Positions 3,267-24,802 of a DNA stretch of 32,000 bases are shown here, in pieces (within the stretch, counting starts at the first letter, position 1; each line of letters begins with the position of its first letter). The DNA is from Candidatus Brocadia sapporoensis. Its GTDB lineage: Bacteria > Planctomycetota > Brocadiia > Brocadiales > Brocadiaceae. The stretch is from NCBI RefSeq assembly GCF_001753675.2, contig NZ_MJUW02000072.1, positions 1-32,000 of the forward strand, read 5' to 3'. The translations under genes and the position numbers were made by a program. Under the pieces are notes generated by a model, which saw nothing but the letters and a program-made list of their open reading frames with translations, did no database searches and was not told the DNA's origin.

Positions 3267-3722
3267 ATGATTTTTTTTGAGGAAATACGGTCTCTTCTTC
3301 CTCAGAAATATCCTTTTTTATTTATTGATAAAGCTATTGAATTTGAAGAAGGGAAAAGAATTGTTTGTGTAAAAAACGTCTCCGGCAATGAACCAGTCTT
3401 TGTTGGACATTTCCCCGACTTTGCCATTATGCCTGGGGTATTAATTATTGAGGCGATGGCGCAGGCATCCATTATCCTATTCAAGAAAAGTCTCTCCGCT
3501 CAAAACACCAAGGACTCGGTCTTTTTATTAGCTTCAGTGAATAATGCCAGGTTCACAAAACCCATTTTTCCCGGCGATCAGCTTTTGATAGAGATTCTTA
3601 TAGAAAAGATTGTATCCAAGGGGGCCATTATTCAGGCATCAGTAAAGGTTGGAGAAAAAACCGTTGCTAAGGCAAATTTGACCTTTGGAATTGCAGAAAA
3701 AAGCGCTTTAATATCTGGTTAA
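3267..3722 (+). CDS. fabZ: 3-hydroxyacyl-ACP dehydratase, FabZ family
   Basis: 151 aa. Canonical motifs are LPQKYPFLFIDK and VGHFPDFAIMPGVLIIEAMAQ (catalytic His and Glu context). Confidence 0.9.
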   Translation: MIFFEEIRSLLPQKYPFLFIDKAIEFEEGKRIVCVKNVSGNEPVFVGHFPDFAIMPGVLIIEAMAQASIILFKKSLSAQNTKDSVFLLASVNNARFTKPIFPGDQLLIEILIEKIVSKGAIIQASVKVGEKTVAKANLTFGIAEKSALISG

Positions 3723-3731
3723 TATATATTT

Positions 3732-4958
3732 ATGAATAAACAGGTAGTTATAACAGGTGTAGGAATGATTACTCCTATCGGGTCAGGAAAGGAAAGATTT
3801 TGGAGTAGCCTCATTGCGGGAGTATCAGGTGTAGATGACGTGACGTGTATTGACACTTCCGGATATAAGGTTCACAAAGGATGTGAAGTGAAAAACTTCA
3901 GGTATTCTGACTATATTAAAAATGGTGTTCTGAAGAAAATCGGAAAGGGTTCACAATTTGCGATTGCAGCCACACGGCTTGCATTGGATGATGCCAGGCT
4001 TGATTTAAGTAAAGTAGCTCTGGAAAGGATTGGGGTGTCTGTAGGAACTACGGCAGGAGAAATACAGATCCTGGAGAAAGTCAATTATATCAGACACAAA
4101 GATGGAGAAGACAAGGTAGACCCCGATCTCTTTTTGATGCATCCCTGCAATAATATTCCAGCAAATGTTGCAATTGAGTTCGGTTTTAAAGGCCCAAATA
4201 CGATTATACCAACTGCCTGCGCAGCCGGCAATTATGCAATTGGGTATGCTTATGATTTGATTAAATTTGGCAGGGTGGACATGATGGTCGCCGGAGGTTC
4301 CGACCCTTTTTCAAAAGTTGCTTATACAGGATTTGCAAGATTGGGCGCTATTGCTCCTGAGATATGCCAGCCATTTGATAAAAATCGGAAAGGTATGATG
4401 GTTGGTGAAGGCTCTGGCATGCTTCTTTTAGAGTCGCTCGATCATGCCGTGAAGAGAAATGCCAATGTTTATGCGGAAATTATTGGTTATGGCCTTAGTT
4501 GTGACGCATATCACATCACTATCCCTCATCCCGATGGAGAAGGTGTTGTTTCTGCTATGAAAAAAGCCTTAAAAAGCGCACACCTTCAACCGGAAGATGT
4601 CCAATATGTCAGCGCACATGGAACAGGAACTCCCGCTAACGATAAAGCAGAAACGATCTCTATTAAAAAGGTCTTTGGAAATAGACCTGAGCATCTCGCA
4701 ATTAGTTCGATAAAATCGATGATTGGTCACACGATGGGTGCGGCCAGTGCCATAGAAGCTATTACATGTGCCTTGGTCGTTCAAAATGACATCATACCTC
4801 CTACAATCAATTATGAAACGCCCGATCCGGAATGTGATTTGGATTATGTGCCTAATATAGCAAGAAAGCAAAAGGTCGCTATCGCGCTGAATAATGCCCA
4901 TGCATTTGGTGGTAACAACAGTTGTTTGGTGGTAAAAAAATTTACGGGTAAGACCTGA
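3732..4958 (+). CDS. fabF: beta-ketoacyl-ACP synthase II-type condensing enzyme (catalytically intact)
   Basis: 408 aa. The Cys-His-His triad contexts are present: [39 protein letters not shown]. The start is 9 nt after the fabZ stop. Confidence 0.92.
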
Positions 4959-5009
4959 AATTAGACAGATCTCAGGAACTGTATACGTATCGATAAACAG
5001 AGGTTTGTG

Positions 5010-6251
5010 ATGGAAAAAACTAGGATTGTTGTGACTGGTGTTTCTGTAATCTCACCGGTCGGAAGTAATAAAGAGGTTTTCTGGAAGAATTTAACCAATG
5101 GTGTATCGGGTATTAAACCGGTCACCTTGTTTGATGTAAGTAAATTTAAGAGTAAGCTGGCCGGTGAAATTTCTAATTTTGATGCAAAATCATACTTGGG
5201 GCAAAAAGGAATACGGCATATCGACAGAACATCCCTTCTTGTGTCATCTGCGACCATTCTTGCCATAAAAGACGCTAATTTAGAAAATAATACCTATGGT
5301 GGAGATGAATTAGGAATTGTCGTTGGCTCAACCTATGGAAGCATTGACAGCATTAGTTCTTTCGATTTTCAATCTTTACGTGAAGGTCCCAATTATGTCA
5401 ATCCTATGGATTTTCCCAATACGGTATTGAATGCACCTGCTAGCCGTGCCTCAATCTTTTGTAAAGCCACGGGATTAAACACTACTATTTCAAACGGTAT
5501 AACAAGCAGTATCGATGCAATCATCTACGCCTCCGATTTTCTTCGGATGGGCAGGGTAAAGGCTGTAATCGCCGGAGGTGTGCATGGATTAACACATGAC
5601 ATCTTTTGGGGAGCACACAATTCACAGATATTATCAGGGAGTAAGGGAGACGGTCTAGAAATTTCTGCACCCTTCGACAAAAGACGCAACGGAATGATCA
5701 TAGGAGAAGCCTCTGCCTTGGTTATCTTGGAGACTTTAGAAGATGCATTAAAACGAAACGCGTCTATTTATGCTGAAATAAAGGGTTATGGAACTGCATT
5801 TGACCCAAAGATGGCTATTAGTAAGGATCATCAGGTAGATGGCAACAAAAGAGCCATGGTGAATGCCATCCACGATGCAAATCTGACGTTAAATGATGTT
5901 TCTTACATATCAGCAAACGCTTATTCTGGTATTTACGGTGATGCAATGGAAACCAAGGTTATTAAAGACGTTTTTGGTATGCGCGCTAATCTTATTCCTG
6001 TAAGTGCTATTAAATCAATGACAGGCGAATGCTATGACGCCTCTGGAGCATTGCAAGCGATCGCTGCTATAATGTCTATCAGCACAAACACAGTGCCACC
6101 AACAATTAACTATGAGGAACGGGATCCCGACTGTGATTTAGATTATGTCGCTAACACCTCAAGGGTCTTACCAGTCAAAAATGTCCTTATTAACACCTTC
6201 TCACGACTAGGAAACAACTCGTCCTTAATTATCTCCAAATATAAACCGTAA
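5010..6251 (+). CDS. KS-like protein lacking the catalytic triad (chain-length-factor-like partner)
   Basis: Full-length KS fold that aligns with the upstream KS. The triad positions are replaced: Cys to Ile (SNGITSS, codon 5499-5501), His to Asn (SANAYSG), His to Glu (TGECYDAS). I prefer the ATG at 5010 because GAGG lies 6 nt upstream. The track starts at GTG 5007. Confidence 0.85.
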   Translation: MEKTRIVVTGVSVISPVGSNKEVFWKNLTNGVSGIKPVTLFDVSKFKSKLAGEISNFDAKSYLGQKGIRHIDRTSLLVSSATILAIKDANLENNTYGGDELGIVVGSTYGSIDSISSFDFQSLREGPNYVNPMDFPNTVLNAPASRASIFCKATGLNTTISNGITSSIDAIIYASDFLRMGRVKAVIAGGVHGLTHDIFWGAHNSQILSGSKGDGLEISAPFDKRRNGMIIGEASALVILETLEDALKRNASIYAEIKGYGTAFDPKMAISKDHQVDGNKRAMVNAIHDANLTLNDVSYISANAYSGIYGDAMETKVIKDVFGMRANLIPVSAIKSMTGECYDASGALQAIAAIMSISTNTVPPTINYEERDPDCDLDYVANTSRVLPVKNVLINTFSRLGNNSSLIISKYKP

Positions 6252-6254
6252 TTC

Positions 6255-7715
6255 ATGACACCTTCCAGCAAATGCATTCAATCCACGAAAAAGGATGCAT
6301 TGTATCCTTATTATGATGTAATAATAATCGGTGCGGGTATAGCTGGCTTGGTTTGCGGTACATTTCTCGCCAGAAGCGGAAAAAAAGTAATTATCATTGA
6401 ACAACATTCTATCCCCGGTGGATACTGCACATCCTTTAAAAGAAAGGGTTTCAATTTTGATGCGGCAGTTCATCATATTGGCGGTTGTGGAAAATGGGGT
6501 ATTGTAGGGCGTTGTCTTAAAACGTTAGGTATTGAGATGGATTTTTATCCACTCGACCCAATGGACCATTTGATTTTTCCTCAATTTACCATAGAAATTC
6601 CAGCTGATTTAGATGAATATATCGCACGCTTACAAGATCGCTACCCATCATCAAAAGACAACGTCAAGCATTTCTTTCAGGATTTTCTCAAGCTCTATCG
6701 TGCAACATTTAATAACGAAAAAAGCCAAATTATCAACAAATACAAAAGCCAGACATATGCAGAAATGCTCAATACATTTTTTTATAATGATGAGCTCAAG
6801 ATGGTACTTTCCGGTCAATGGGGTTACGTAGGTCTCCCCCCTACCAAGGCTTCTGCTATCGGTATGTGTCAAATGATGATCAACTACCTCAAAGACGGTG
6901 CCTTTTTCCCTGCAGGCGGTACACAAGAATTTGCGAATGCATTTATAAAGAAATTTATTGATTTTGGCGGACATGTTATGCTATCATCCAAGGCCGAAAA
7001 AATTTTGTGTACCGGCAAAACTGCTGTTGGCATTGCGTTGCAAGAAGGGAAAGAACTATTATCAAATCTGGTCGTTTCAAACATCGATGCAAAACAAACT
7101 TTTTTTGATTTGCTTGAAGGAAAATTAGATACACGGTTCCTACAAAGAATTGAGAAAATGAAAGAAAGTTGTTCCTTTTCTCTTCTGTACTTGGGCATCG
7201 GTAAAGGCTTAGATCTAGGCAAATTACAAAGAGGGTTTTATCATAGTGCCACAGACGCGACATATAGTGATCCAGAGTGGTTATACGTTTCGATTCCAAC
7301 AAAGATATGCCCAACACTTGCCCCGCCGCATAAACAGATAATCTCTGTGGTGGTTTATCATGAAAAAAAGAAATATAACGATATTACGAATTGGAAATCT
7401 TTTAAGGAAACCATGATAGAAGACACAATAAGTCGGATAGAAAAATACGTTCCTGATATAAAGAGATATATAGAAGTACTAGAAGCGGCTACCCCAAGAA
7501 CTTTGAAGCGGTATACGTTAAATACTGATGGGGCTGCTTATGGGTGGGAGGTTAGTGTAGATCAAATAGGGGATAACATGCTTTCCCATGAGACACCGAT
7601 AGAAAATCTGTATTTAACCGGCCATTGGACAAGGCCTGGCCCTGGAATTTGTGCAGTTGTGTCTTCTGGATGGGGTGTAGCAAACTTAATCATGGAGAAG
7701 GAGAAACGGAGGTAA
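6255..7715 (+). CDS. FAD-dependent oxidoreductase, phytoene desaturase (CrtI)-like family
   Basis: 486 aa. N-terminal dinucleotide fold DVIIIGAGIAGLVCGTFLARSGKKVIIIEQHSIPGG. C-terminal LYLTGHWTRPGPGICAVVSSG is typical of CrtI/amine-oxidase-type flavoenzymes. The start is 3 nt after the upstream stop. Confidence 0.85.
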   Translation: MTPSSKCIQSTKKDALYPYYDVIIIGAGIAGLVCGTFLARSGKKVIIIEQHSIPGGYCTSFKRKGFNFDAAVHHIGGCGKWGIVGRCLKTLGIEMDFYPLDPMDHLIFPQFTIEIPADLDEYIARLQDRYPSSKDNVKHFFQDFLKLYRATFNNEKSQIINKYKSQTYAEMLNTFFYNDELKMVLSGQWGYVGLPPTKASAIGMCQMMINYLKDGAFFPAGGTQEFANAFIKKFIDFGGHVMLSSKAEKILCTGKTAVGIALQEGKELLSNLVVSNIDAKQTFFDLLEGKLDTRFLQRIEKMKESCSFSLLYLGIGKGLDLGKLQRGFYHSATDATYSDPEWLYVSIPTKICPTLAPPHKQIISVVVYHEKKKYNDITNWKSFKETMIEDTISRIEKYVPDIKRYIEVLEAATPRTLKRYTLNTDGAAYGWEVSVDQIGDNMLSHETPIENLYLTGHWTRPGPGICAVVSSGWGVANLIMEKEKRR

Positions 7716-7719
7716 CTTT

Positions 7720-9180
7720 ATGAAAAGAAAAATGATGTTAATTAACCCACACAAACCGGGAAGACACGGTGAAGAAAGTATTACGGTAATAGTTCAGATG
7801 CCTTTGAATCTTGCTTACATTGCTGCACTTACACCAGGTGATTGGGAATTTGATGTCATCGATGAGAATCTGGAATTAGCAATCAATGATAATGACGAAA
7901 TTACTTTTAAGCCCGTTGATCTTGTCTGTATTACGGCAGTTACCTATCAATCTCCCCGTGCTTATAAAATCGCTCAAGCTTGCAGGAAGAGAGGTATGAC
8001 GGTAATTATGGGTGGTATACATGCTTCTGTAGTGCCTGAAGAAGCAGCAAATTACGTTGATGCTGTATTTGTGGGCGAAGCAGAAGAAGTATGGCCACAG
8101 GTTATAAAGGATTTTGAAGCGGGAAAACTGAAAAAACGTTATGAGGGAGGATTACCACCCCTTAGCCTGATGAAAAAGGTATATCCAAACCGGGAACTTA
8201 TGAAGAAAAAATACAATTATAAGTTTTCTTCTATTGTCACGACAAAAGGGTGTCCGAATTATTGTGATTTCTGTAGTGTGCCTACTTTCCAGGGCAGAAA
8301 ATTCAGGGAAAGACCTTATGAGGACGTTCTGGCAGAAATGGCGGCAACAGATTATATGGGTCTAATGCTTGCAGAAGACAATTTCTACGGACACGGGAAA
8401 AAGTCAAACGAGAGAGCAAGAGATCTTTTTAAGGGGATGGTGGAGCGTGGTATACATAAAGACTGGTTAGGATTCACCGCCTTAAATATCTCCCAAGATC
8501 CTGAAACATTAGATTACATGGCCAAGAGCGGTAATTTTGGCATGCTTATTGGCATCGAATCCACCAATGAAGCTGTTTTAGAGAAGATGAACAAACGGGT
8601 AAATCTTAAATTGGGCACCGACAGCTATTTTGATTGTATCCAAAAAATACACAATGCAGGTTTAGTTGTTTGGGGTTCCGTAGTGTTTGGAGCAGATGGA
8701 GATGATAAAGATTCCTTTAAACGAATGACGGAGTTTATATTGGAAAATAATATTGATATTCTTACCTTCGGTATTAACTGTCCATTCCCAAAGACACAGC
8801 TCTATGCAAGACTGGATTCGGAAAAAAGGATTTTTAGAAAGAATTATCCAGAGGATTGGCAATATTATGACACAGCGCATGTTGTTCATCGCCTCATTGA
8901 CATGACATTAGAAGACTTTATTGAGGGTATGCAGTATGTTTATGATCATGTATATGCGGGAGATAATTTACGTATGCGCTTTAGGAATTCTATTAAGACA
9001 ACAAAAAATCCACGGAACTCCATGTTCGCCTTTAGGGTAGGTTCCGATTGGAAACAAGTGTTCGAACAGGTCCTGCAGAATTTAAAAGAGTTATATGATT
9101 CAGGTGATTATTATAAAGATTGCTATAAATCAGGTACGGTAACTGTTTCAAAACCCGTAATGGAGACGGCCACTACTTAA
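7720..9180 (+). CDS. cobalamin-binding-domain radical SAM enzyme (class B architecture)
   Basis: 486 aa. N-terminal B12-binding-like region (...DLVCITAVTYQSPRAYKIAQACRKRGMTVIMGGIHAS...). This is followed by CPNYCDFC, a CxxxCxxC motif (C178/C182/C185, nt 8251-8274). The start is 4 nt after the upstream stop. Confidence 0.88.
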   Translation: MKRKMMLINPHKPGRHGEESITVIVQMPLNLAYIAALTPGDWEFDVIDENLELAINDNDEITFKPVDLVCITAVTYQSPRAYKIAQACRKRGMTVIMGGIHASVVPEEAANYVDAVFVGEAEEVWPQVIKDFEAGKLKKRYEGGLPPLSLMKKVYPNRELMKKKYNYKFSSIVTTKGCPNYCDFCSVPTFQGRKFRERPYEDVLAEMAATDYMGLMLAEDNFYGHGKKSNERARDLFKGMVERGIHKDWLGFTALNISQDPETLDYMAKSGNFGMLIGIESTNEAVLEKMNKRVNLKLGTDSYFDCIQKIHNAGLVVWGSVVFGADGDDKDSFKRMTEFILENNIDILTFGINCPFPKTQLYARLDSEKRIFRKNYPEDWQYYDTAHVVHRLIDMTLEDFIEGMQYVYDHVYAGDNLRMRFRNSIKTTKNPRNSMFAFRVGSDWKQVFEQVLQNLKELYDSGDYYKDCYKSGTVTVSKPVMETATT

Positions 9181-14647: not shown

Positions 14648-14679
14648 TTCAATGCATATAAATTTCATTAAAAAAGTTT

Positions 14680-14707
14680 GGCATAGACAAGCGTAGTCGT
14701 CCATGCC
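14680..14707. repeat. 28-nt palindromic element, copy B, between rplM and rpsI
   Basis: GGCATAGACAAGCGTAGTCGTCCATGCC. The arms GGCATAGAC and GTCCATGCC pair with one mismatch. It is preceded by AAAAAGTTT and followed by TTTTT, then the rpsI SD. It matches the element at 19213-19240 at 21 of 28 positions and has the same length. Confidence 0.55.
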
Positions 14708-14724
14708 TTTTTGAGGAGGAAGAA

Positions 14725-16165: not shown

Positions 16166-16195
16166 TTGCAAATTCTACACTGTGTAGAATATAAT
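16166..16195 (+). promoter_or_regulatory. candidate promoter upstream of the blaI-like gene
   Basis: TTGCAA (16166-16171), an 18-nt spacer, then TATAAT (16190-16195). It lies about 90 nt upstream of the ATG at 16285. Confidence 0.5.
16172..16190. promoter_or_regulatory. perfect 19-bp palindrome, candidate BlaI/CopY-family operator
   Basis: ATTCTACAC-T-GTGTAGAAT has 9-bp perfect arms around T16181. It fills the whole -35/-10 spacer. It contains TACA...TGTA half-sites like the known BlaI/MecI/CopY operators. Confidence 0.55.
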
Positions 16196-16284: not shown

Positions 16285-16719
16285 ATGGGTAAACAGTTGA
16301 AATTCAATTTCAATCCTTTTAAAGAAGGATTGAACCATGTCTTAGGGACTCTGGAGAAAGATATTATGGAGGTATTGTGGAAGCACGGAGAGTCATCGGT
16401 AAAGGACATTTTGGATACTCTTCCGGCCGGCAGAAACATTTCATATTCTGCAGTGATTACCGTTACCAATCGAATGACCAAGAAAGCGCTTCTTCAGAAA
16501 AGGAAAGTGGGAAAGGCGTATTTTTATACGCCTATCTACGATAGAGAGAAATTCTTTGAAATTATATCAAAAAAAGTCGTGGAAGGAATTTCGGGATTTT
16601 CTCTTCAGTCAGCAATGGTGCATTTTGTGGACTATATGTCGCAAATGGATCCAGAAAAAATTGAATATTTTTCCAAACTGATCGAATCCAAGAGGCAATC
16701 ATTATCAAAAAAACGTTGA
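16285..16719 (+). CDS. BlaI/MecI/CopY-family winged-helix transcriptional repressor
   Basis: 144 aa. LEKDIMEVLWKHGESSVKDILDTL...YSAVITVTNRMTKKALLQKRKVGKAYFYTP matches the family pattern. The protein contains no Cys, so the CopY-type CxCxxxxCxC metal site is absent. Confidence 0.8.
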   Translation: MGKQLKFNFNPFKEGLNHVLGTLEKDIMEVLWKHGESSVKDILDTLPAGRNISYSAVITVTNRMTKKALLQKRKVGKAYFYTPIYDREKFFEIISKKVVEGISGFSLQSAMVHFVDYMSQMDPEKIEYFSKLIESKRQSLSKKR

Positions 16720-16734
16720 GAATTCAAAGTAAAC

Positions 16735-17712
16735 ATGAAACACGTAATCATAGACCAACAAGGAAAGGCACAATTATATTTTTTGCTGATAGTGTTTATC
16801 AATCTCACAATCTTTTCATTGATTGTTACTGGCGTTGTGATTGGCATCAAAGGGTATATATCTGATACCAGGTCTGTGTATACATCGATAACCTGCTGTG
16901 AGAGTATCTGCTCAACATGTTTTTTTACCTTGCATACCATAGCTACGATACTTCCCTGGGTCTGCATTGTAATACTTTTTGTTGGAATATGTGCAGCCAT
17001 TTATAAAGCGCTATACATACCCTATAGAAATAACAGCTTGATCCACTCTCTCCCGTCTCTTTCCATTGAGTGCTATCCCAAATTAAAAAATATTGCTCAC
17101 CGTATGCACTTTCACAATCAACTTGTGCTTTTAGACAACAGCGAATTACGTTACGCTTTTACATCGGGACTATGGAAGCCAAAAGTATATATATCTCTGG
17201 GCTTGTGTTTTTATTTAACAAGAAAGGAACTCCAGGCCGTACTCCTTCACGAGGCTCAACATAAAAAGAACAAAGATCCATTAAAATTATTTATTATACA
17301 AATATTGTATGCACTCAATTTTTTCCTTCCGATTAATCATTATTTGTTAGATCAATTTTCTTCCGCATCGGAGAAGGCAGCAGATGATAGCGCTGTAAAT
17401 GTTTCCAGAGAGCCTATAGAACTGGCGAGCGCACTTGTAAAGATATGCAAATCTAATCAAACAGCAGCGTTATATCCATTTGTCTCTTATTTCAAAGGAC
17501 AAAATGTTACAGAAGACCGAGTAAGACGTTTGCTGGAGCCGCAGATGCCTCCCCCCGATCTTTTTAAAGTTTACCTGTATTCTTCCAGTTTTTTATCTCT
17601 TTTTATTGCTACGATATTATTTTTGTCTTTATTTTATAAATTCTTACTACCTGCGTATGCCCCTGACTGTGCAGCTAAAACATGTCACATAGTCAGGTGC
17701 GGACAATCCTAA
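16735..17712 (+). CDS. M56-family (BlaR1-like) membrane metalloprotease without a penicillin-binding sensor domain
   Basis: 325 aa with several hydrophobic helices. The zinc motif sits in the family context RKELQAVLLHEAQHKKNKDP (HExxH). There is a Cys cluster TCCESICSTC...H and a C-terminal tail PDCAAKTCHIVRCGQS. The start is 15 nt after the repressor stop. Confidence 0.75.
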   Translation: MKHVIIDQQGKAQLYFLLIVFINLTIFSLIVTGVVIGIKGYISDTRSVYTSITCCESICSTCFFTLHTIATILPWVCIVILFVGICAAIYKALYIPYRNNSLIHSLPSLSIECYPKLKNIAHRMHFHNQLVLLDNSELRYAFTSGLWKPKVYISLGLCFYLTRKELQAVLLHEAQHKKNKDPLKLFIIQILYALNFFLPINHYLLDQFSSASEKAADDSAVNVSREPIELASALVKICKSNQTAALYPFVSYFKGQNVTEDRVRRLLEPQMPPPDLFKVYLYSSSFLSLFIATILFLSLFYKFLLPAYAPDCAAKTCHIVRCGQS

Positions 17713-17722
17713 TTTACAATAT

Positions 17723-19054
17723 ATGAATAGAATACTATCAAAAATATTTGTTCTCGTCTCCATCCTGCTTGTTTCTCATGCCATCGCCATTGCCCAGGAC
17801 AAATACAACATTACGGCTGTGAAACAAACGAACAACAAGAACGTTATTATTGAAATGAGTGAGACGGACGCCCCCTTGGACTTAAAATGGTTGATTCAGG
17901 AGGCAATGGAACATAATCCGGAAATTATTGCAGCTCAAAAACGTTTAAACGCTGCAAAAGCAAAGATTTCACAAGCTAAATCCTTGGACGACCCTAATAT
18001 CAGTATTGGTTCTTATCGGGCGTCTAATAGCCCCATTAGTGCCGAAGGTCAAGCCGATTTTTTTTCACGGCAACTTGGCGCATCCCAAAAGATACCTTTT
18101 CCTGGGAAACTGCGTTATAGAGGTGAGGTGGCTGCAGAAGAATCTAAAATAGTGGAAAAAGACCTGCAGTCTAAAATACAGGAAATTATAGCCCTTGTAA
18201 AATCTGCTTTTTACGAACTTTATTACATTAACAATGCTATTGACATTACGGACGAAAACAGAGAGCTATTGCGCAAGTTTGCTAAGATCGCAGAAACAAA
18301 ATATTCCGTAGGTAAGGCAACCCAGAGGGATGCGCTTGCAGCACAGGTCGAATTGTCTACCTTGGCTAATAATCTCATTGTTTTGAACAAGGAAAGGGAA
18401 TCAATTATCGCCCGATTAAACATCTTATTGGACAGACCCACACAGACCCCTTTGGGGAAACCCCGCTCTTTTGAAAAGCATACCCTTAATTTAACAATAA
18501 AAGAATTAGAAGGCCTTGCAGTTAATAATAGTCCGGAGCTTAAAAAGTTTGACCATGCTATTAAGAAGAATGAAGCGTCCTTAAAACTTTCAAAAAAGGA
18601 TTATTACTTTTCAGACATTGAACCCATGGTTGAATATATGCAAATGGATGGAATGCCTGACGCATGGACTACAAAACTTACTTTTAATGTACCATGGTTG
18701 TGGTCTAAAAACCGGTCGAAGGTTAAGGAGGCCAATGAAGATCTTTCCGCTGCCAGGTCTGATTATCGCTTCATTAACAATAAGACTTTTTTTGAGATAA
18801 AAGATTTTTTAACCAAAATACACTCCTCTGAAAGCACAACAAATCTTTATGAGACAGGCGTTATTCCTCAGGCCGAACAATCATTAAAGGCCGCGCGCAT
18901 TGGATACGAAACAGACAAGGCAGATTTTCTTACCCTGATCGACAGCCAACGGATTCTTTTAAACTCAAGACTACTTTACTATAGGGCACTGACCGATTAT
19001 GAGCAAAACCTGGCAAACATGGAAAGGGCTATAGGAATGCAGTTGACGCAATAA
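17723..19054 (+). CDS. TolC-family outer membrane factor of the efflux system
   Basis: 443 aa. It has a signal peptide (no lipobox Cys). LDLKWLIQEAMEHNPEIIAAQKRLNAAKAKISQAKS and the two-repeat helical organisation are typical of OMF proteins. Confidence 0.8.
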   Translation: MNRILSKIFVLVSILLVSHAIAIAQDKYNITAVKQTNNKNVIIEMSETDAPLDLKWLIQEAMEHNPEIIAAQKRLNAAKAKISQAKSLDDPNISIGSYRASNSPISAEGQADFFSRQLGASQKIPFPGKLRYRGEVAAEESKIVEKDLQSKIQEIIALVKSAFYELYYINNAIDITDENRELLRKFAKIAETKYSVGKATQRDALAAQVELSTLANNLIVLNKERESIIARLNILLDRPTQTPLGKPRSFEKHTLNLTIKELEGLAVNNSPELKKFDHAIKKNEASLKLSKKDYYFSDIEPMVEYMQMDGMPDAWTTKLTFNVPWLWSKNRSKVKEANEDLSAARSDYRFINNKTFFEIKDFLTKIHSSESTTNLYETGVIPQAEQSLKAARIGYETDKADFLTLIDSQRILLNSRLLYYRALTDYEQNLANMERAIGMQLTQ

Positions 19055-19160
19055 AACCCGTGCTTAGCTTTCTGCCATTAATGATATACCAAAGCTAATT
19101 GCTAATTGTCGATTGCTGATGGCTGAGCACTTATCATAAAAGTTAAGAAAGGAACGTTAT

Positions 19161-21272
19161 ATGTCTTTCAAACAATTTCTTCAAAAACACAAATATTTCG
19201 ATAAAAAAGGGTGGCATGGACAAACTTGTTTGTCCATGCCTGGCTTGATGTTTAGAAATTTTAAACTGATGGTACAACCGTCCCGGTTGCGCAAAGAAAA
19301 AAATCACCGAAGGCGTACTTTCATCAAACCTACGCTTGCTATCCTTAGTATCCTTTCCAGCATTTATGCACAGCACCTTGTAGTGATAAGGCGCACCTTG
19401 CCACCACAAGACGTATTCAGCCTTGTTTCTTCCGCAAACGCTGAAGAAGCAAAGGAAAAGAAGATACTCTACTGGACATGCGGAATGCACCCTTCCGTGA
19501 AAATGGATAAACCCGGTAAATGTCCTATTTGTGCAATGGACCTCGTTCCGGTTTATGAAAAAGGAGTAGCTGGTGAAAAAGAAGAAGGCACACTGACTAC
19601 CGTAGAACTGGGTGAACGTGCCCGTAAACTGGCGCGTGTCAAAACGGACGTTATTACTTATCGGTCATTAACCAAAGATATTTATACGGTAGGATTGATA
19701 GATTATGATGAAAGACTTACGGCCTTTGTGTCGGCGTGGATCCCGGGCAGAATTGATAAACTCTTTGTTGATTTCACTGGCACAGAAGTAGTAAAAGACG
19801 AAGCCATGGTCTGGATATACAGCCCGGAACTGGTATCTACACAGGAAGAATATCTTTTAGCATGTGAGACCCTGGAAAAAGTAAAGAAAAGCCCCTTCCC
19901 AGAAGTAATAAATGGCGCTAAATCACTTATTGATGCATCCAGAAGGAGATTATTATGGTGGGGTGTCACAGAAAAACAGATTTCAGAGCTTATAAAAGAT
20001 AAAAAGGTAAAGCAACATACGATCATATATGCCCCTATCAGCGGTACTGTTATCGAGAAAAAAGTGCTGGAAGGCCAATACGTTATGCAAGGCGGGATGA
20101 TATACACGGTTGCCGATCTTTCGAACATATGGATGAAGGCCAATGTTTATGAATATGAAATGGCATGGGTAAAGGTTGGGCAGGAAGTAGAGATCACGAC
20201 CCCCGCATATCCGGGAGAGGCTTTTATTGGGAAAGTTGCCTTTATAGAGCCGTTCCTTGACGATAAGACACGCTCGGTAAAGATTCGCTGCGATATCCCT
20301 AATCATCAGCTAAAACTCAAACCATCAATGTACGTCAACGCCCGCATACGGATACCGGTTGAAGAACTTGGAAGTGAAGGTGAACGTTATGTGAGTGGAC
20401 TGGATTACTTCTGTCCCAATCATCCGGAAATTAAATCCAGCAGACCGGGCATATGCCCTGAAGATAATCTCCCCTTTGCAAAGAAATCCCCTTCGCAAAT
20501 AGAACTAGTTACTGCTGCCAGTATGGCTTCGTCGCAAGGAGAAATTGAGTATGAATATGTATGTCCCATGGAATGCTACAGCTCCAAAGAACCCGGTAAT
20601 TGCCCAGTGTGCGGCATGAAGCTTGAGAAGGCAACTGTTAAGGCTTTAGGCAAGAAGTTAACATGCATTTGTCCACAAGAATGGGATCCAAAGGCAGCGC
20701 CAAAATCATGCCCTATATGCGGTATGTTACTAAAAAAGAGTATGACGATAACCTTGCCTAACGGTGAAGAAAAACATAAATTCGTGTATATGTGTCCGAT
20801 GGCGTGTATGACCTCTGAGAAACCAGGAGAATGTCCTGATTGTAAAAGGCAGATGGGCAGATGGGAGGTCAAAGAAGGGTTAAGGATAACAGCGCAAAAA
20901 ATAGAACTCAAAAGACGCAGCGTTTATGCCTGCCCCATGCATCCGGAGATAGTTTCCAATCAACCAGGGAATTGTAATAAATGCGGAATGAATCTTGGAA
21001 AAACTATCCAGGTGCTTGCCATCCCAGCCACCGCAGTGTTAGACACAGGCATACGAAAGATTGTTTATATCGATAAAGACAATGGACAATATATAGGAAA
21101 AGAAGTCGCTCTTGGTCTAAAAGCGGGTGATTACTATCCCATCTTGGATGGACTTGAAGAGGGAGATAAAGTGGTTACATCCGCAAACTTCCTCATCGAC
21201 TCCCAGAGTCAGCTTACCGGCGGAGCCAGCGCTTTGTACGGAGGATCGATGGAATTTAAGGAAGAAAAATAA
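19161..21272 (+). CDS. cusB: RND efflux periplasmic adaptor (CusB-like) with one N-terminal and five internal Cys-rich heavy-metal-binding modules
   Basis: The MFP core is present (ISGTVIEKKVLEGQYVMQGGMIYTVADLSNIWMKANVYE...). A membrane anchor lies around aa 55-76. Repeats of the type YxCPMHPE...PGxCPxCGM occur at aa 104-130 and aa 416-614. The start is uncertain: ATGs at 19236, 19248 and 19269 lie at or after the palindrome and are plausible. Confidence 0.85.
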   Translation: MSFKQFLQKHKYFDKKGWHGQTCLSMPGLMFRNFKLMVQPSRLRKEKNHRRRTFIKPTLAILSILSSIYAQHLVVIRRTLPPQDVFSLVSSANAEEAKEKKILYWTCGMHPSVKMDKPGKCPICAMDLVPVYEKGVAGEKEEGTLTTVELGERARKLARVKTDVITYRSLTKDIYTVGLIDYDERLTAFVSAWIPGRIDKLFVDFTGTEVVKDEAMVWIYSPELVSTQEEYLLACETLEKVKKSPFPEVINGAKSLIDASRRRLLWWGVTEKQISELIKDKKVKQHTIIYAPISGTVIEKKVLEGQYVMQGGMIYTVADLSNIWMKANVYEYEMAWVKVGQEVEITTPAYPGEAFIGKVAFIEPFLDDKTRSVKIRCDIPNHQLKLKPSMYVNARIRIPVEELGSEGERYVSGLDYFCPNHPEIKSSRPGICPEDNLPFAKKSPSQIELVTAASMASSQGEIEYEYVCPMECYSSKEPGNCPVCGMKLEKATVKALGKKLTCICPQEWDPKAAPKSCPICGMLLKKSMTITLPNGEEKHKFVYMCPMACMTSEKPGECPDCKRQMGRWEVKEGLRITAQKIELKRRSVYACPMHPEIVSNQPGNCNKCGMNLGKTIQVLAIPATAVLDTGIRKIVYIDKDNGQYIGKEVALGLKAGDYYPILDGLEEGDKVVTSANFLIDSQSQLTGGASALYGGSMEFKEEK
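19213..19240. repeat. 28-nt palindromic element, copy A, between the OMF and adaptor genes
   Basis: GGCATGGACAAAC-TT-GTTTGTCCATGCC has perfect 13-bp arms. It is preceded by AAAAAAGGGT. It lies inside the 5' end of the computed cusB ORF. Confidence 0.6.
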
Positions 21273-21365
21273 TCTTTGAAACCACCGATTACACAGACAA
21301 ATACAGACATTCTGTAATTTCTCTTTCAATGCAAAAAAATTTTAAAGTTTCTCATTGTACCATTT

Positions 21366-21433
21366 ACCCACCCCTAAATCCCCTCCCAAGAGGGACTTTG
21401 TAATTCCCCTCTCGGGAGGGGCCAGGGGTGGGT
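21366..21433. repeat. GC-rich nested inverted repeat in the cusB-cusA spacer
   Basis: ACCCACCCCT (21366-21375) pairs with AGGGGTGGGT (21424-21433). CCCCTCCC (21380-21387) pairs with GGGAGGGG (21414-21421). GAGGG (21390-21394) pairs with CCCTC (21407-21411). Its composition contrasts sharply with the AT-rich flanks. Confidence 0.6.
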
Positions 21434-21441
21434 GGAATGTC

Positions 21442-21469
21442 GTTGGGTTTTTGTCTTTTAAAACCCAAC
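21442..21469. repeat. second hairpin in the cusB-cusA spacer
   Basis: GTTGGGTTTT (21442-21451) pairs with AAAACCCAAC (21460-21469) around an 8-nt loop. No U-run follows it. Confidence 0.5.
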
Positions 21470-21592
21470 CTAATTTATGGAGAAGAATCTCTTCACTACA
21501 GAAGATTCGTGAATTAATTTTAAATATAGGCTTTGATTAAAAATAGGCCAGAAATCTGTGTAAGCTGTGAAATCTGTGGTTACAAAATTAGT

Positions 21593-24500
21593 ATGATCAA
21601 TAAACTCATTGAACTCTGCCTCAAAAACCGGTTCCTCATCATCTGCTTCTACCTTCTGGTGATATTTGGTGGCGTCTTTGGTTTAAAGAATATCAACATG
21701 GATGTCATTCCGGATATCGGTGAAAACCAGTGCATCATCTTTACCGATTGGCCAGGACGCAGTCCCCAGGACGTAGAAGATCAGGTCACCTACCCCCTGA
21801 CGGTTAATCTGCTTGGAGTACCCGGCGTAAAAGTTATACGCTCCCAATCAGGCTTTGGCTTTTCCATGATATTTATTGTCTTCCAGGAAAAGATTGATTT
21901 TTACTGGGCGCGCTCTCGTGTGTTGGAGAGGTTAAATTTTGTACAAGCGTTGCTTCCAAAAGATGTTGTCCCCCGATTGGGTCCAGATGCCACGGGACTT
22001 GGTCAGATTTTCTGGTATACCGTGGAAGGCGAAGGATATGACCTTGGACAACTGCGTTCCATACAGGACTGGTTTATTCGCTATCAACTTAATGCTGTGG
22101 AAGGCGTTTCAGAAGTCGCAGGAGTTGGTGGTTTTGTCAGACAATACCAGGTCGATGTCGATCCCAATAAATTGCTGGCATACCGTTTAACAGTGGGAAA
22201 CGTGTATGAAGCCGTGCGCAAGAGTAACATCGACGTAGGCGCCAAGGTCGTAGAAAGCAATAATATGGAGTTTATCGTCCGTGGACTTGGATTCATAAAA
22301 AACGTTTCCGATATTGAAAATATCACGGTGGGCAGTTATAACGGTGTGCCCATTTTCGTCAAAAACGTAGGTATTGTGCAGGTTGGGGGTGATTTCAGAC
22401 GCGGGGCGTTGGATAAGGAAGGCGCCGAGGTTGCTGGCGGCATTGTCCTCATGCGACAGGGGCAAAACCCCCTGGAGGTGATTAAAAGGATAAAAAAGAA
22501 GATGAAAGAGATTGCGCCGGGGTTGCCGCCGGGCGTAAAGATCGTGCCCTTTTATGACAGGGAAGGTCTTATCTACCGGGTTATTGATACCCTGAGAGAG
22601 GCGCTGATAGAAGAGATCATCATCACTTCCCTGGTTGTAGCGATTTTCCTCTTACATGTCCGGAGTATTTTTATCTGCTGTCTCGGATTCCCTATATCCA
22701 TACTTGTTTCATTCCTGGGCATGTATTTTATGGGTATCGACTCAAACATCATGTCCCTCACAGGTATCGCCATTGCAATTGGTGAGGTAAGCGATATGAG
22801 CATCGTCATGACGGAGAATATCTTCAGAAATCTCATAGAACAAAAGGATAAGAAAAGCAGACCGCAGATCATCCTTGACGCCTCGAAAGAGGTTGGCAGT
22901 TCCATTTTCTTCGCTGCTTTAACCACCATATTTATGTTCTTTCCGGTATTTGGTCTCACCGGGCAGGAAGGAAAGCTCTTTAAACCGCTGGCGTGGACAA
23001 AGACCTTTGCCATTGGGGCATCGGTTGTTATGGCAATTACCCTGGTGCCTATACTTTGTACCTTTCTGTTAAAAGGTAAACTAAGGCCTATGGAGGAGAA
23101 TTTTTCCTCCAGGATGCTTTTGAATGGTTATCAACCCGTGCTTAGGTGGGTGTTGGATCATAAGAAGACGTTCCTTGCTATCCCGCTTGCCATTGTCGTT
23201 TCATCTGTCTTTGTGGCAAAAAGGATTGGGAGGGAGTTCATGCCGCCCCTGGACGAAGGTTCTATCCTGTTTATGCCGGTGATGCTACCCAGCGTGGCCT
23301 TAACGGATGCCTTCAGGGTCATGCAGAAACAGGATATGATAATAAAATCCTTTCCGGAAATAGATATAGCAGTTGGAAAATTAGGGAGGGCGGAAACCCC
23401 TACAGACCCGGCGCCCGTCGAGATGTTTGAGACCGTTGTTACCCTAAAACCAAGGGAAGAATGGCGTAAAAAGAAGATCGAATACAAATTTTTAAACTAT
23501 GTGCCCCCCCTCTTTCATCCCCTTTTTCATTGGATTTTGCCAGACGAGCGAACGATTACCAAGCAGGAACTCATCAAGGAAATGGATGAAGCTTTAAGGA
23601 TACCTGGTGTTGCAAACATATGGACACAGCCCATCATAAATCGTGTGGACATGCTGGCAACGGGAATTCGTACATCGGTTGGTGTCAAGATATTTGGAAC
23701 GGACCTGAACGTATTGCAACAATTGGCCATTGACATTGAAAAAGCGCTACAGGATGTGCCCGGTGTTGCGGATCTTTATGCAGAAAGGATCACAGGAAAA
23801 CCATATCTGGAATATCATATTAAACGGGAGGAAATCGCCCGCTATGGTATCAATATCCAGGATGTGCAGGATGTTATTGAATCTGCTATTGGAGGAGAAA
23901 ATATTTCCACAACGGTAGAGGGACGCGAGCGCTATCCCATACGGGTCAGATACGCCCGGGAACTGAGGGACAATTTTGACGCGCTAAAAAAGATTTATGT
24001 TCCAAGCTCTGGAGGTCAACGTATTCCTATTACACAGGTCACCGATATACGTTACGTAATGGGACCGGCCATGATCAGCAGCGAGAATGCCCTCCTGAGG
24101 GCTTATGTCCTAATGAATGTCCGCGGTAAAGATCCAATGAGCTTTGTAGAAGAGGCATCCAGGGTCGTGTCGCAAAAAGTTATGTTGCCTCATGGGTACT
24201 TTGTTCAATGGAGCGGTCAGTTTGAAAATCAGATCAGGGCCAGAAAGAGATTGCAAATCCTTGTGCCTTTATCCATGGTTGTTGGCTTTCTCCTGATTTT
24301 TATGGCCTTTAAATCATTCCCGCAAACAATGTTTATCCTGTTTGCCGGTATACCAACGGCCATTGCAGGTGGTGTCTGGCTTCAATACCTGTTTGGCTAT
24401 AACTTCAGCGTCGCTGTCTGGGTAGGTTTTATCTCTATCTTTGGTATTGTGGATGACGATTCCGTCCTTATTACTACCTATATTAACGATCTGTTTGGTA

Positions 24501-24802
24501 AAAGGAAGATGAAAAGTATCCATGATATCCGTGATACAATTCTGATGGCGGGCACACGAAGGATACGGCCATGTGTAATGACGGCTGCCACCACCTTTAT
24601 TGGACTTATACCTATCCTGTGGGAAACTGGCGCCGGCGCAGAGGTTGCCAAACCCATGGCAATTCCATCTATCGGGGGTATGGCCATGGCATTGGTCAGC
24701 GTCTTCATCATCCCCTGCCTGAATGCCTGGCACAAGGAACGTAAGTTTTTGAAAGCCGTAAAGCAAAACCCCGGAATTAAGGAGACCGGAGTTTTTGTGT
24801 AA
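21593..24802 (+). CDS. cusA: heavy-metal efflux RND pump, CusA/CzcA family
   Basis: It is co-linear with E. coli CusA as I remember that sequence: MINKLIELCLKNRF..., PPLDEGSILFMPVM, GRAETPTDPAPVEMFETVV, NRVDMLATG, and the TM4 segment GEVSDMSIVMTEN. The Met residues at the three positions of the CusA Cu(I)/Ag(I) methionine cluster appear conserved. I prefer the ATG at 21593 over the track's TTG at 21533. Confidence 0.92.
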   Translation: MINKLIELCLKNRFLIICFYLLVIFGGVFGLKNINMDVIPDIGENQCIIFTDWPGRSPQDVEDQVTYPLTVNLLGVPGVKVIRSQSGFGFSMIFIVFQEKIDFYWARSRVLERLNFVQALLPKDVVPRLGPDATGLGQIFWYTVEGEGYDLGQLRSIQDWFIRYQLNAVEGVSEVAGVGGFVRQYQVDVDPNKLLAYRLTVGNVYEAVRKSNIDVGAKVVESNNMEFIVRGLGFIKNVSDIENITVGSYNGVPIFVKNVGIVQVGGDFRRGALDKEGAEVAGGIVLMRQGQNPLEVIKRIKKKMKEIAPGLPPGVKIVPFYDREGLIYRVIDTLREALIEEIIITSLVVAIFLLHVRSIFICCLGFPISILVSFLGMYFMGIDSNIMSLTGIAIAIGEVSDMSIVMTENIFRNLIEQKDKKSRPQIILDASKEVGSSIFFAALTTIFMFFPVFGLTGQEGKLFKPLAWTKTFAIGASVVMAITLVPILCTFLLKGKLRPMEENFSSRMLLNGYQPVLRWVLDHKKTFLAIPLAIVVSSVFVAKRIGREFMPPLDEGSILFMPVMLPSVALTDAFRVMQKQDMIIKSFPEIDIAVGKLGRAETPTDPAPVEMFETVVTLKPREEWRKKKIEYKFLNYVPPLFHPLFHWILPDERTITKQELIKEMDEALRIPGVANIWTQPIINRVDMLATGIRTSVGVKIFGTDLNVLQQLAIDIEKALQDVPGVADLYAERITGKPYLEYHIKREEIARYGINIQDVQDVIESAIGGENISTTVEGRERYPIRVRYARELRDNFDALKKIYVPSSGGQRIPITQVTDIRYVMGPAMISSENALLRAYVLMNVRGKDPMSFVEEASRVVSQKVMLPHGYFVQWSGQFENQIRARKRLQILVPLSMVVGFLLIFMAFKSFPQTMFILFAGIPTAIAGGVWLQYLFGYNFSVAVWVGFISIFGIVDDDSVLITTYINDLFGKRKMKSIHDIRDTILMAGTRRIRPCVMTAATTFIGLIPILWETGAGAEVAKPMAIPSIGGMAMALVSVFIIPCLNAWHKERKFLKAVKQNPGIKETGVFV

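Follow-up and report, generated by a model that had tools for sequence, protein, structure and literature searches.

Gene organization of the locus

The first 32,000 nt of contig NZ_MJUW02000072.1 of Candidatus Brocadia sapporoensis, an anammox planctomycete of the family Brocadiaceae (assembly GCF_001753675.2), were analysed, and this whole stretch is referred to below as the window. The list of open reading frames (ORFs) and Pfam searches identified a cassette of five genes on the + strand (16285–24802) that encode, in this order, a BlaI-type repressor, a short BlaR1-like membrane protease of family M56, an outer-membrane factor (OMF), a CusB-like periplasmic adaptor and a CusA-type pump of the heavy-metal efflux resistance–nodulation–division (HME-RND) type. 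The same genes, order and strand had been described in an original prediction made from the DNA letters alone. The five-gene arrangement is real, conserved and coherent, and the position of a copper pump behind a BlaI/M56 pair points to an undescribed way in which metal outside the cell may be sensed through cleavage of an intracellular repressor. Among named organisms, Candidatus Brocadia and Jettenia had the regulator genes most closely related to those of the cassette.

The repressor

The first gene (16285–16719, + strand) encodes a winged-helix repressor of the BlaI/MecI/CopY family (144 aa), which matched Pfam family PF03965 (Penicillinase_R) at 86.5 bits (cut-off 22.6) over positions 1–114 of the 115 in the profile. 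Its nearest solved relative was the BlaI protein of Mycobacterium tuberculosis (2G9W). The sequence contains no cysteine, the score against the CopY_TcrY model (TIGR02698) was below the cut-off (49.8 versus 121.95 bits), and the CxCx4CxC motif of CopY was absent from all 13 aligned members of the repressor family. The repressor therefore cannot sense copper in the manner of CopY, as the original prediction had argued from the lack of cysteine, and direct CopY-type sensing was ruled out. Met and His residues around 'AMVHFVDYMSQM' were also considered as a copper site, and were rejected because they were not conserved in the family alignment.

The segment 'AMVHFVD', which is conserved across the repressor family, aligned with 'LVLNFVE' of MecI and 'ALVHFVE' of M. 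tuberculosis BlaI. The MecI segment presumably holds the N101/F102 (Asn-Phe) cleavage site, and inactivation of the cassette repressor by proteolysis is reasonably likely. Brocadiales repressors also carry a conserved N-terminal extension of 19 residues, LKFNFNPFKEGLN (MxKxLKFNFNPFKEGLN; 16285–16345 in the window), before the winged helix, which is missing from BlaI, MecI and the relatives in a second phylum that are described below.

The protease and its cysteine motifs

The second gene (16735–17712, + strand) encodes a short BlaR1-like M56 zinc protease of 325 aa. It matched Pfam Peptidase_M56 (PF05569) with 62.8 bits against a cut-off of 31, whilst M48 matched with a lower score. The catalytic motif HEAQH is located at residues 172–176, followed downstream by E213, and H172, E173, H176 and E213 were invariant in the protease alignments. 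The best fold match in the Protein Data Bank (PDB) was the cryo-EM structure of Staphylococcus aureus BlaR1 (8EXQ/8EXP; E = 5e-5 for 8EXQ), in agreement with the earlier assignment of the partner protein to the family of zinc proteases that cleave BlaI and MecI. The score for the blaR1_generic model was 36 bits against a cut-off of 400, and Pfam revealed no transpeptidase, beta-lactamase or penicillin-binding domain in the protein.

Three strongly hydrophobic segments were found at approximately residues 14–37, 66–92 and 281–303. The last two flank the HExxH...E domain, and the chain ends 22 residues past the third. Were the catalytic domain to lie on the cytoplasmic side, as it does in BlaR1, the loop between the first two transmembrane segments (TM1–TM2) and the C-terminal tail would face the periplasm, and both are predicted to do so. 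The loop contains C54, C55, C59 and C62, and the 22-residue tail contains C312, C317 and C322. C55, C62, C312 and C322 were invariant even in relatives at 26–30 % identity, and C54, C59 and C317 were invariant within the Brocadiales. The second-phylum proteases possess a Cx6C loop and a tail of the form CxxxHCxxH...CxxHC that runs into a His-rich end.

The wider family was surveyed by running a profile against 1.84 billion representative proteins, and 210 clusters were returned at E ≤ 1e-30. A loop CxnC motif together with at least two tail cysteines was present in 86 of the 131 full-length top cluster representatives, and CxxxHCxxH..CxxHC with a His-rich end was a common tail form. These Cys or Cys/His clusters, which the original prediction had missed, strengthen a reading in terms of metal. 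The loop and tail motifs look like metal ligands, and the chance that direct binding of metal by the protease is the signal is judged to be nearly even.

Promoter and operator

A sigma-70-type promoter (TTGCAA, an 18-nt spacer and TATAAT; 10/12 matches) was found 5' of the repressor gene on the + strand (16166–16195). Its spacer is filled by an operator-like perfect palindrome, ATTCTACActgTGTAGAAT (16172–16190), with the core TACAnnnTGTA; a TACA/TGTA core is the recognised signature of BlaI, MecI and CopY operators. The site at 16172–16190 was the only zero-mismatch operator site in the window, where 0.27 sites with three or fewer mismatches would be expected by chance, and the TACAnnnTGTA core itself occurred only once. 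The layout of –35 box, palindrome and –10 box was present in 11/11 of the Brocadiales loci examined, and a version shifted by one base, cTTGACATTCTAC(A/G)nnnTGT(C/A)GAATATAAT, was found in 14 loci of Thermodesulfobacteriota/Deltaproteobacteria. The palindrome ATTCTACAnnnTGTAGAAT is conserved across the two phyla both in its place within the promoter spacer and in its sequence. As the palindrome sits inside the promoter spacer, a bound repressor would act by occlusion, and autoregulation of the repressor through this predicted operator is very probable.

No second operator was found in the window 5' of the OMF gene, cusB or cusA by a mismatch-tolerant site scan. Two further candidates were discarded: the palindrome TACAGAcatTCTGTA at 21302, which has the wrong spacing and belongs to a repeat arm of the cusB–cusA spacer, and a near-operator 5' of cusA in Wujingus (L004, 14711), which has mismatches in its left half and was not counted. 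In Kuenenia, a second core (TACAcacTGTA) followed by TATAAT, with the same distance from core to TATAAT, lies 66 nt 5' of a gene for a small HMBD protein; the flanks of this core do not match the full operator.

The OMF, adaptor and pump

The third gene (17723–19054, + strand) encodes a TolC/CusC-like OMF of 443 aa (Pfam OEP, 161.8 bits), and the OMF gene was located directly 3' of the protease gene in all related loci. The CusB-like adaptor (19161–21272, + strand) matched Pfam HlyD_D23 with 246.6 bits and the NCBIfam CusB model PRK09783 with E = 6e-45. Its unusual length (703 aa) is due to four HMBD modules (CxxC...CxxC), of which the first is N-terminal and the other three are inserted close to the C-terminus, whereas Escherichia coli CusB has none.

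The last gene encodes an HME-RND pump of 1069 aa (21593–24802, + strand; ACR_tran), whose true start is the ATG at 21593, inside an ORF that opens at 21533 (21533–24802). It scored 1031 bits against the CusA/CzcA model TIGR00914 (cut-off 701), and 858 bits with E. coli CusA versus 537 bits with ZneA. M561, M611 and M687 are the equivalents of CusA M573, M623 and M672, so that all three positions hold Met; the Asp of TM4 (D405 in CusA) is also kept, and the methionine triad was retained in the pumps of both phyla. With a CusB-type adaptor and an OMF gene adjoining, the pump is of the CusCBA type that had been predicted; the substrates of CusA-type pumps are Cu(I) and Ag(I).

Conservation of the cassette

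The order repressor–M56–OMF–CusB–CusA was kept in Brocadia (L001 and L002), in Wujingus (L004–L006) and in a deep-branching Brocadiales genome (L013), as well as in the metagenome loci L040 and L042–L045 as far as their contigs extend. The flanking genes differed among these Brocadiales and metagenome loci. A genome-wide scan with a delta-type alignment (A2) detected relatives in a second phylum, where groundwater genomes classified as 'Deltaproteobacteria' or Thermodesulfobacteriota carried the same five-gene order with proteases that were 27–40 % identical. Fifteen species representatives of this second group comprised nine complete cassettes, three that were cut by contig ends but consistent, and three orphan proteases. 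Conservation of the adjacency had been put forward as a check in the original prediction, and it was borne out in the Brocadiales with their different flanks and in the second phylum.

A scan of metagenomes yielded six close relatives and 74 generic M56 loci, the latter serving as a control; an OMF or CusB neighbour was found at none of the 74. Chance adjacency was excluded by the synteny across phyla and this control. The identity ranks of all five proteins were congruent across loci, which fits a cassette that travels as a unit, and the protease was its fastest-evolving part.

Several loci showed local variation. The orphan proteases (L021, L023 and L027) had no detectable repressor gene, and in L021 and L023 the protease gene was located upstream of a gene for a stand-alone response-regulator receiver, a sign that the same protease may be wired differently there. 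In Kuenenia stuttgartiensis (L010, 10001–15233), cusBA was replaced by a gene for a multihaem/CarboxypepD_reg protein of 617 aa, followed by one for an HMBD protein of 75 aa. One Brocadia assembly (L003, 14860–17553; GCA_021463075.1) kept the repressor, protease, OMF and cusB genes and had an unrelated ORF of 260 aa and a peroxidase gene at the place of cusA; this reflects either loss or rearrangement at the cusB–cusA spacer, or misassembly. A subset of the Thermodesulfobacteriota cassettes (L017, 9843–10322; L018–L020, L022 and L030) carried a small extra gene between the protease and OMF genes. Its product has about 125 aa, a signal peptide and no Pfam match, and is possibly a periplasmic metal-binding accessory.

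Intergenic regions

The repressor and protease genes are separated by 15 nt, and the protease and OMF genes by 10 nt. The third gap measures 106 nt when the long cusB ORF is read from its first ATG, or about 190–215 nt with M30 or M37 as the start of cusB; the figures of 15, 10 and roughly 100–200 nt given in the original prediction were thus accurate, and the cusB–cusA gap of 320 nt (21273–21592) was absent from its list of junctions. The OMF–cusB junction contains a hairpin resembling a repetitive extragenic palindromic (REP) element (GGCATGGACAAAC...GTTTGTCCATGCC; 19188–19241, no strand assigned; repeat family D2), with a stem of 12 bp at 19213–19240. A second copy with 76 % identity lies between rplM and rpsI (14655–14708). 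The hairpin in the cassette has no T-run 3' of its stem on the + strand. As the hairpin and the beginning of the long cusB ORF overlap, the true start codon among the candidates for cusB (19161, 19248 and 19269) is probably 19248 or 19269.

The cusB–cusA spacer (21273–21592, + strand) is highly structured, with a predicted RNA fold of –115.9 kcal/mol (z = –9.0). Its ends are long inverted repeats that pair with each other in one long stem; the left arm is located just 3' of the cusB stop codon and the right arm, with ATCTGTG repeats, just 5' of the cusA ATG. The arms were conserved in Brocadiaceae (L042–L044) around a variable interior of 270–650 nt, which in Brocadia L001 and L002 contains an ORF for a 23S_rRNA_IVP four-helix bundle. 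An Rfam search of the junctions gave no matches, and a known RNA element was rejected. The spacer resembles an insert within an operon, of the kind seen as intervening sequences in rRNA or as miniature inverted-repeat transposable elements (MITEs), and it may be an RNase III processing site.

Junctions were shorter in relatives, where the repressor and M56 genes overlap by 4 nt and the OMF–cusB gap is only about 20–45 nt; in the second phylum the cusB–cusA gap is 82–133 nt. The rplM–rpsI pair, which carries the sister hairpin, is normally co-transcribed. From this pair and from the short gaps and the overlap in relatives the cassette is inferred to be one operon, and co-transcription of the pump with the regulator genes is likely.

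Copper-related genes near relatives

Neighbours of the cassette in relatives included genes for a copper P-type ATPase, YHS and HMA proteins and a multicopper oxidase; in L013, for example, a gene for a copper-type P-type ATPase is located upstream of the cassette, with genes for YHS and HMA proteins on its downstream side. Cys-bearing pairs of more distant relationship occurred in genomes of the candidate phyla radiation (CPR) type that have no RND pump, where they formed same-strand strings with copper genes. An HMBD P-type ATPase, YHS, DsbD_TM, redoxin and cupredoxin were encoded beside the pair in L121, a multicopper oxidase in L014, and thioredoxin-like proteins and DUF2933 in L120.

In the window itself, a same-strand run upstream of the cassette (3267–9180) encodes a beta-ketoacyl synthase, an amine-oxidase/FAD protein and a B12-binding radical SAM protein, and is reminiscent of anammox lipid (ladderane-type) gene clusters.

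Proposed mode of control

These features suggest the following mode of control. The cassette's own BlaI-type repressor would block its single promoter by binding ATTCTACAnnnTGTAGAAT between the –35 and –10 boxes. A thiophilic metal in the periplasm, likeliest Cu(I) or Ag(I), would bind the thiol or thiol-imidazole cluster of the loop and tail, and the change caused by binding would travel via the membrane helices, so that the protease becomes activated, or unmasked and accessible. The protease would then cut the repressor in its dimerisation helix near 'AMVH/FVD', and with the repressor off the operator the pump would be made, together with fresh repressor and protease. The general idea that metal or envelope stress is sensed by regulated proteolysis of the repressor, with which the original prediction had ended, is supported by the present analysis. 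The whole sequence of events, from a single repressor-blocked promoter through periplasmic metal sensed by the protease and cleavage of the repressor to expression of the pump, is given a probability of about 50 %.

A number of observations weigh against it. In the cassette repressor the aligned Phe is preceded by His, where MecI has Asn. Confidence in the AlphaFold2 (AF2) model of the protease, with a predicted local distance difference test (pLDDT) score of 73.9, was low exactly at the Cys loop and tail (pLDDT 33–62), and the periplasmic cysteines could instead have a structural role, as disulfides or as a zinc site, or act as a redox sensor. Orphan proteases, with an upstream ORF that gave no Penicillinase_R match and with a response regulator beside the two that were examined, account for three of the 15 Thermodesulfobacteriota relatives. 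Kuenenia keeps the repressor, protease and OMF genes in a locus without cusBA, and one Brocadia assembly (L003) is without cusA; the Cys-bearing relative L015 showed no metal genes nearby. The structured spacer and the OMF–cusB hairpin could be points at which transcripts end or are processed, or could conceal a promoter that departs from the consensus. The promoter scan yielded 22 sites in the DNA as it is versus 21.8 in shuffled sequence.

Alternative explanations

The best-surviving alternative, which is nevertheless unlikely, keeps the proteolytic switch and changes the signal: the cysteines would be a thiol-redox or envelope-stress sensor that responds to a copper-catalysed or oxidant-driven disulfide, or the protease would respond to the condition of the pump or its HMBD-rich adaptor. 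Seven conserved cysteines in predicted periplasmic segments, where thiol chemistry is redox-sensitive, would suit such a sensor, as would the thioredoxin-like, DsbD_TM and redoxin genes beside the pair in CPR-type loci and the lack of a confident metal-site geometry in the AF2 model. The commonest tails of the wider family, however, are Cys/His-rich with poly-His ends (CxxxHCxxH..CxxHC..HxH), which speaks more for metal ligation than for a disulfide switch. The gene contexts all point specifically to copper, and most of the lineages that carry the pair live anaerobically, a condition under which thiols in the periplasm can remain reduced.

A second alternative, rather less probable still, limits the BlaI/M56 pair to control of itself and perhaps of the OMF gene, with cusB and/or cusA expressed from unrecognised promoters in the junctions under a regulator encoded elsewhere. 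It gains from the length of these junctions (106–215 and 320 nt), which contain a hairpin and a highly structured spacer, and from the spacer interior, which behaves as an inserted element and even carries an ORF. Kuenenia retains the pair and the OMF gene without cusBA, and planctomycete promoters may deviate from the sigma-70 consensus that was scanned. A separate promoter for the pump had been named in the original prediction as grounds for giving up its reading; no consensus promoter was found on the + strand in the cassette junctions by the promoter scan, and no separate promoter or operator was recognised 5' of the pump genes. The absence of internal promoters is weak evidence, because the scan finds no more sites than it does in shuffled sequence. 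More telling against independent expression of the pump genes are the short OMF–cusB gap in relatives and the shorter cusB–cusA gap in the second phylum, the retention of the complete five-gene order and strand across phyla, and the occurrence of the same REP-like hairpin within the normally co-transcribed rplM–rpsI pair. No other metal regulator was found within the 32 kb, nor was a histidine kinase, response regulator, MerR, CsoR, extracytoplasmic function (ECF) sigma or anti-sigma factor detected in the large ORFs scanned there; a two-component system may be encoded at another place in the genome.

It is very unlikely that the M56/M48 protein is an HtpX-like membrane protease for quality control or maturation of the pump, with the repressor answering some other signal: its best NCBIfam matches, though weak, were to HtpX models and Pfam M48 also matched, but M56 outscored M48, BlaR1 was the best fold match, and the protease gene was translationally coupled to a BlaI-type repressor gene in every lineage examined, including those without an RND pump, a pairing of repressor and protease that is the hallmark of BlaI/BlaR1 modules.

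Significance of a possibly metal-responsive BlaI/M56 pair

Beyond this locus, it is tentatively proposed that copper and silver are sensed outside the cytoplasm by a widespread but uncharacterised class of short proteases of the BlaR1 type, whose periplasmic loop and tail are rich in Cys or in Cys and His. These would cleave a Cys-free BlaI-type repressor and control the copper defence of their own host. No fewer than 86 clusters (50 % identity) have the loop motif as well as the tail motif. If the proposal is true, the class controls CusCBA in diderm anaerobes (anammox Planctomycetota and Thermodesulfobacteriota) and a P-type ATPase, cupredoxin or multicopper oxidase in CPR-type bacteria. The BlaI branch of the repressor family, which depends on a protease, and the CopY branch, which depends on metal, would also be linked by such a class.

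Anammox bacteria are difficult to cultivate, but the compact design of the cassette, with one promoter, one operator and two regulators, would allow it to be tested in a heterologous host. The subject also has a bearing on the toxicity of copper in wastewater reactors that rely on anammox. The full-text literature searched, a body that leaves most subscription journals outside its scope, yielded no account of a BlaI/M56 pair with a link to copper or to Cus/Czc pumps; one paper that contained all the relevant terms proved to be unrelated to such a link.

Comparison with known systems

The regulator pair is of the same type as BlaR1/BlaI and MecR1/MecI, the beta-lactam-triggered systems of Staphylococcus and Bacillus, in that a Penicillinase_R repressor is combined with an M56 HExxH membrane protease. 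The BlaI and MecI operators likewise have a TACA/TGTA core that overlaps the promoter, and the segment aligned with the presumed cleavage site is conserved, but with His-Phe in the cassette repressor in place of Asn-Phe. BlaR1 possesses a C-terminal extracellular penicillin-binding sensor that resembles a class D beta-lactamase, whereas the cassette protease lacks this domain and has the Cys tail and loop instead. The output also differs, being a beta-lactamase or PBP2a for BlaR1/MecR1 and a CusCBA-type pump here, and the cassette pair scored far below the NCBIfam cut-offs for BlaR1 and BlaI.

A large number of BlaR1-like proteases are without the domain that binds the antibiotic. Among them are those of the 'sensor-less' BlaIR pairs, which also combine a short M56 protease that has no beta-lactam sensor with a BlaI-type repressor. 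They include Rv1846c/Rv1845c of M. tuberculosis, MAB_2415c/2414c of Mycobacterium abscessus and PvmSR of Pseudomonas aeruginosa, and their signal was stated to be unknown (bioRxiv 10.64898/2026.08.03.742534). Copper and efflux are not mentioned in that report; the context of the cassette offers a candidate signal, copper or silver, together with specific residues of a sensor-less BlaR1-like protease, and this would be the first signal named for 'sensor-less' BlaR proteins if the proposal holds.

CopY/TcrY of Enterococcus, Streptococcus and Lactococcus belongs to the same family (PF03965), controls copper export and binds a related operator. The cop box is TACAnnTGTA, unlike the cassette operator with its spacing of 3 nt. 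CopY senses Cu(I) itself through its C-terminal CxCx4CxC Cu(I)/Zn site and needs no protease, whereas the cassette repressor has no cysteine.

Cus and Czc pumps are known to be switched by two-component systems, by ECF sigma modules or by cytoplasmic metal-binding repressors. In CusRS/CzcRS and CnrYXH, as proposed here, an extracytoplasmic metal signal crosses the membrane and turns on an HME-RND pump. Those systems use a kinase and regulator or an ECF sigma/anti-sigma pair, whereas the cassette would use irreversible cleavage of its repressor, and a BlaR1/BlaI-type switch would, if this is true, be a further and irreversible route by which a periplasmic metal signal reaches the chromosome.

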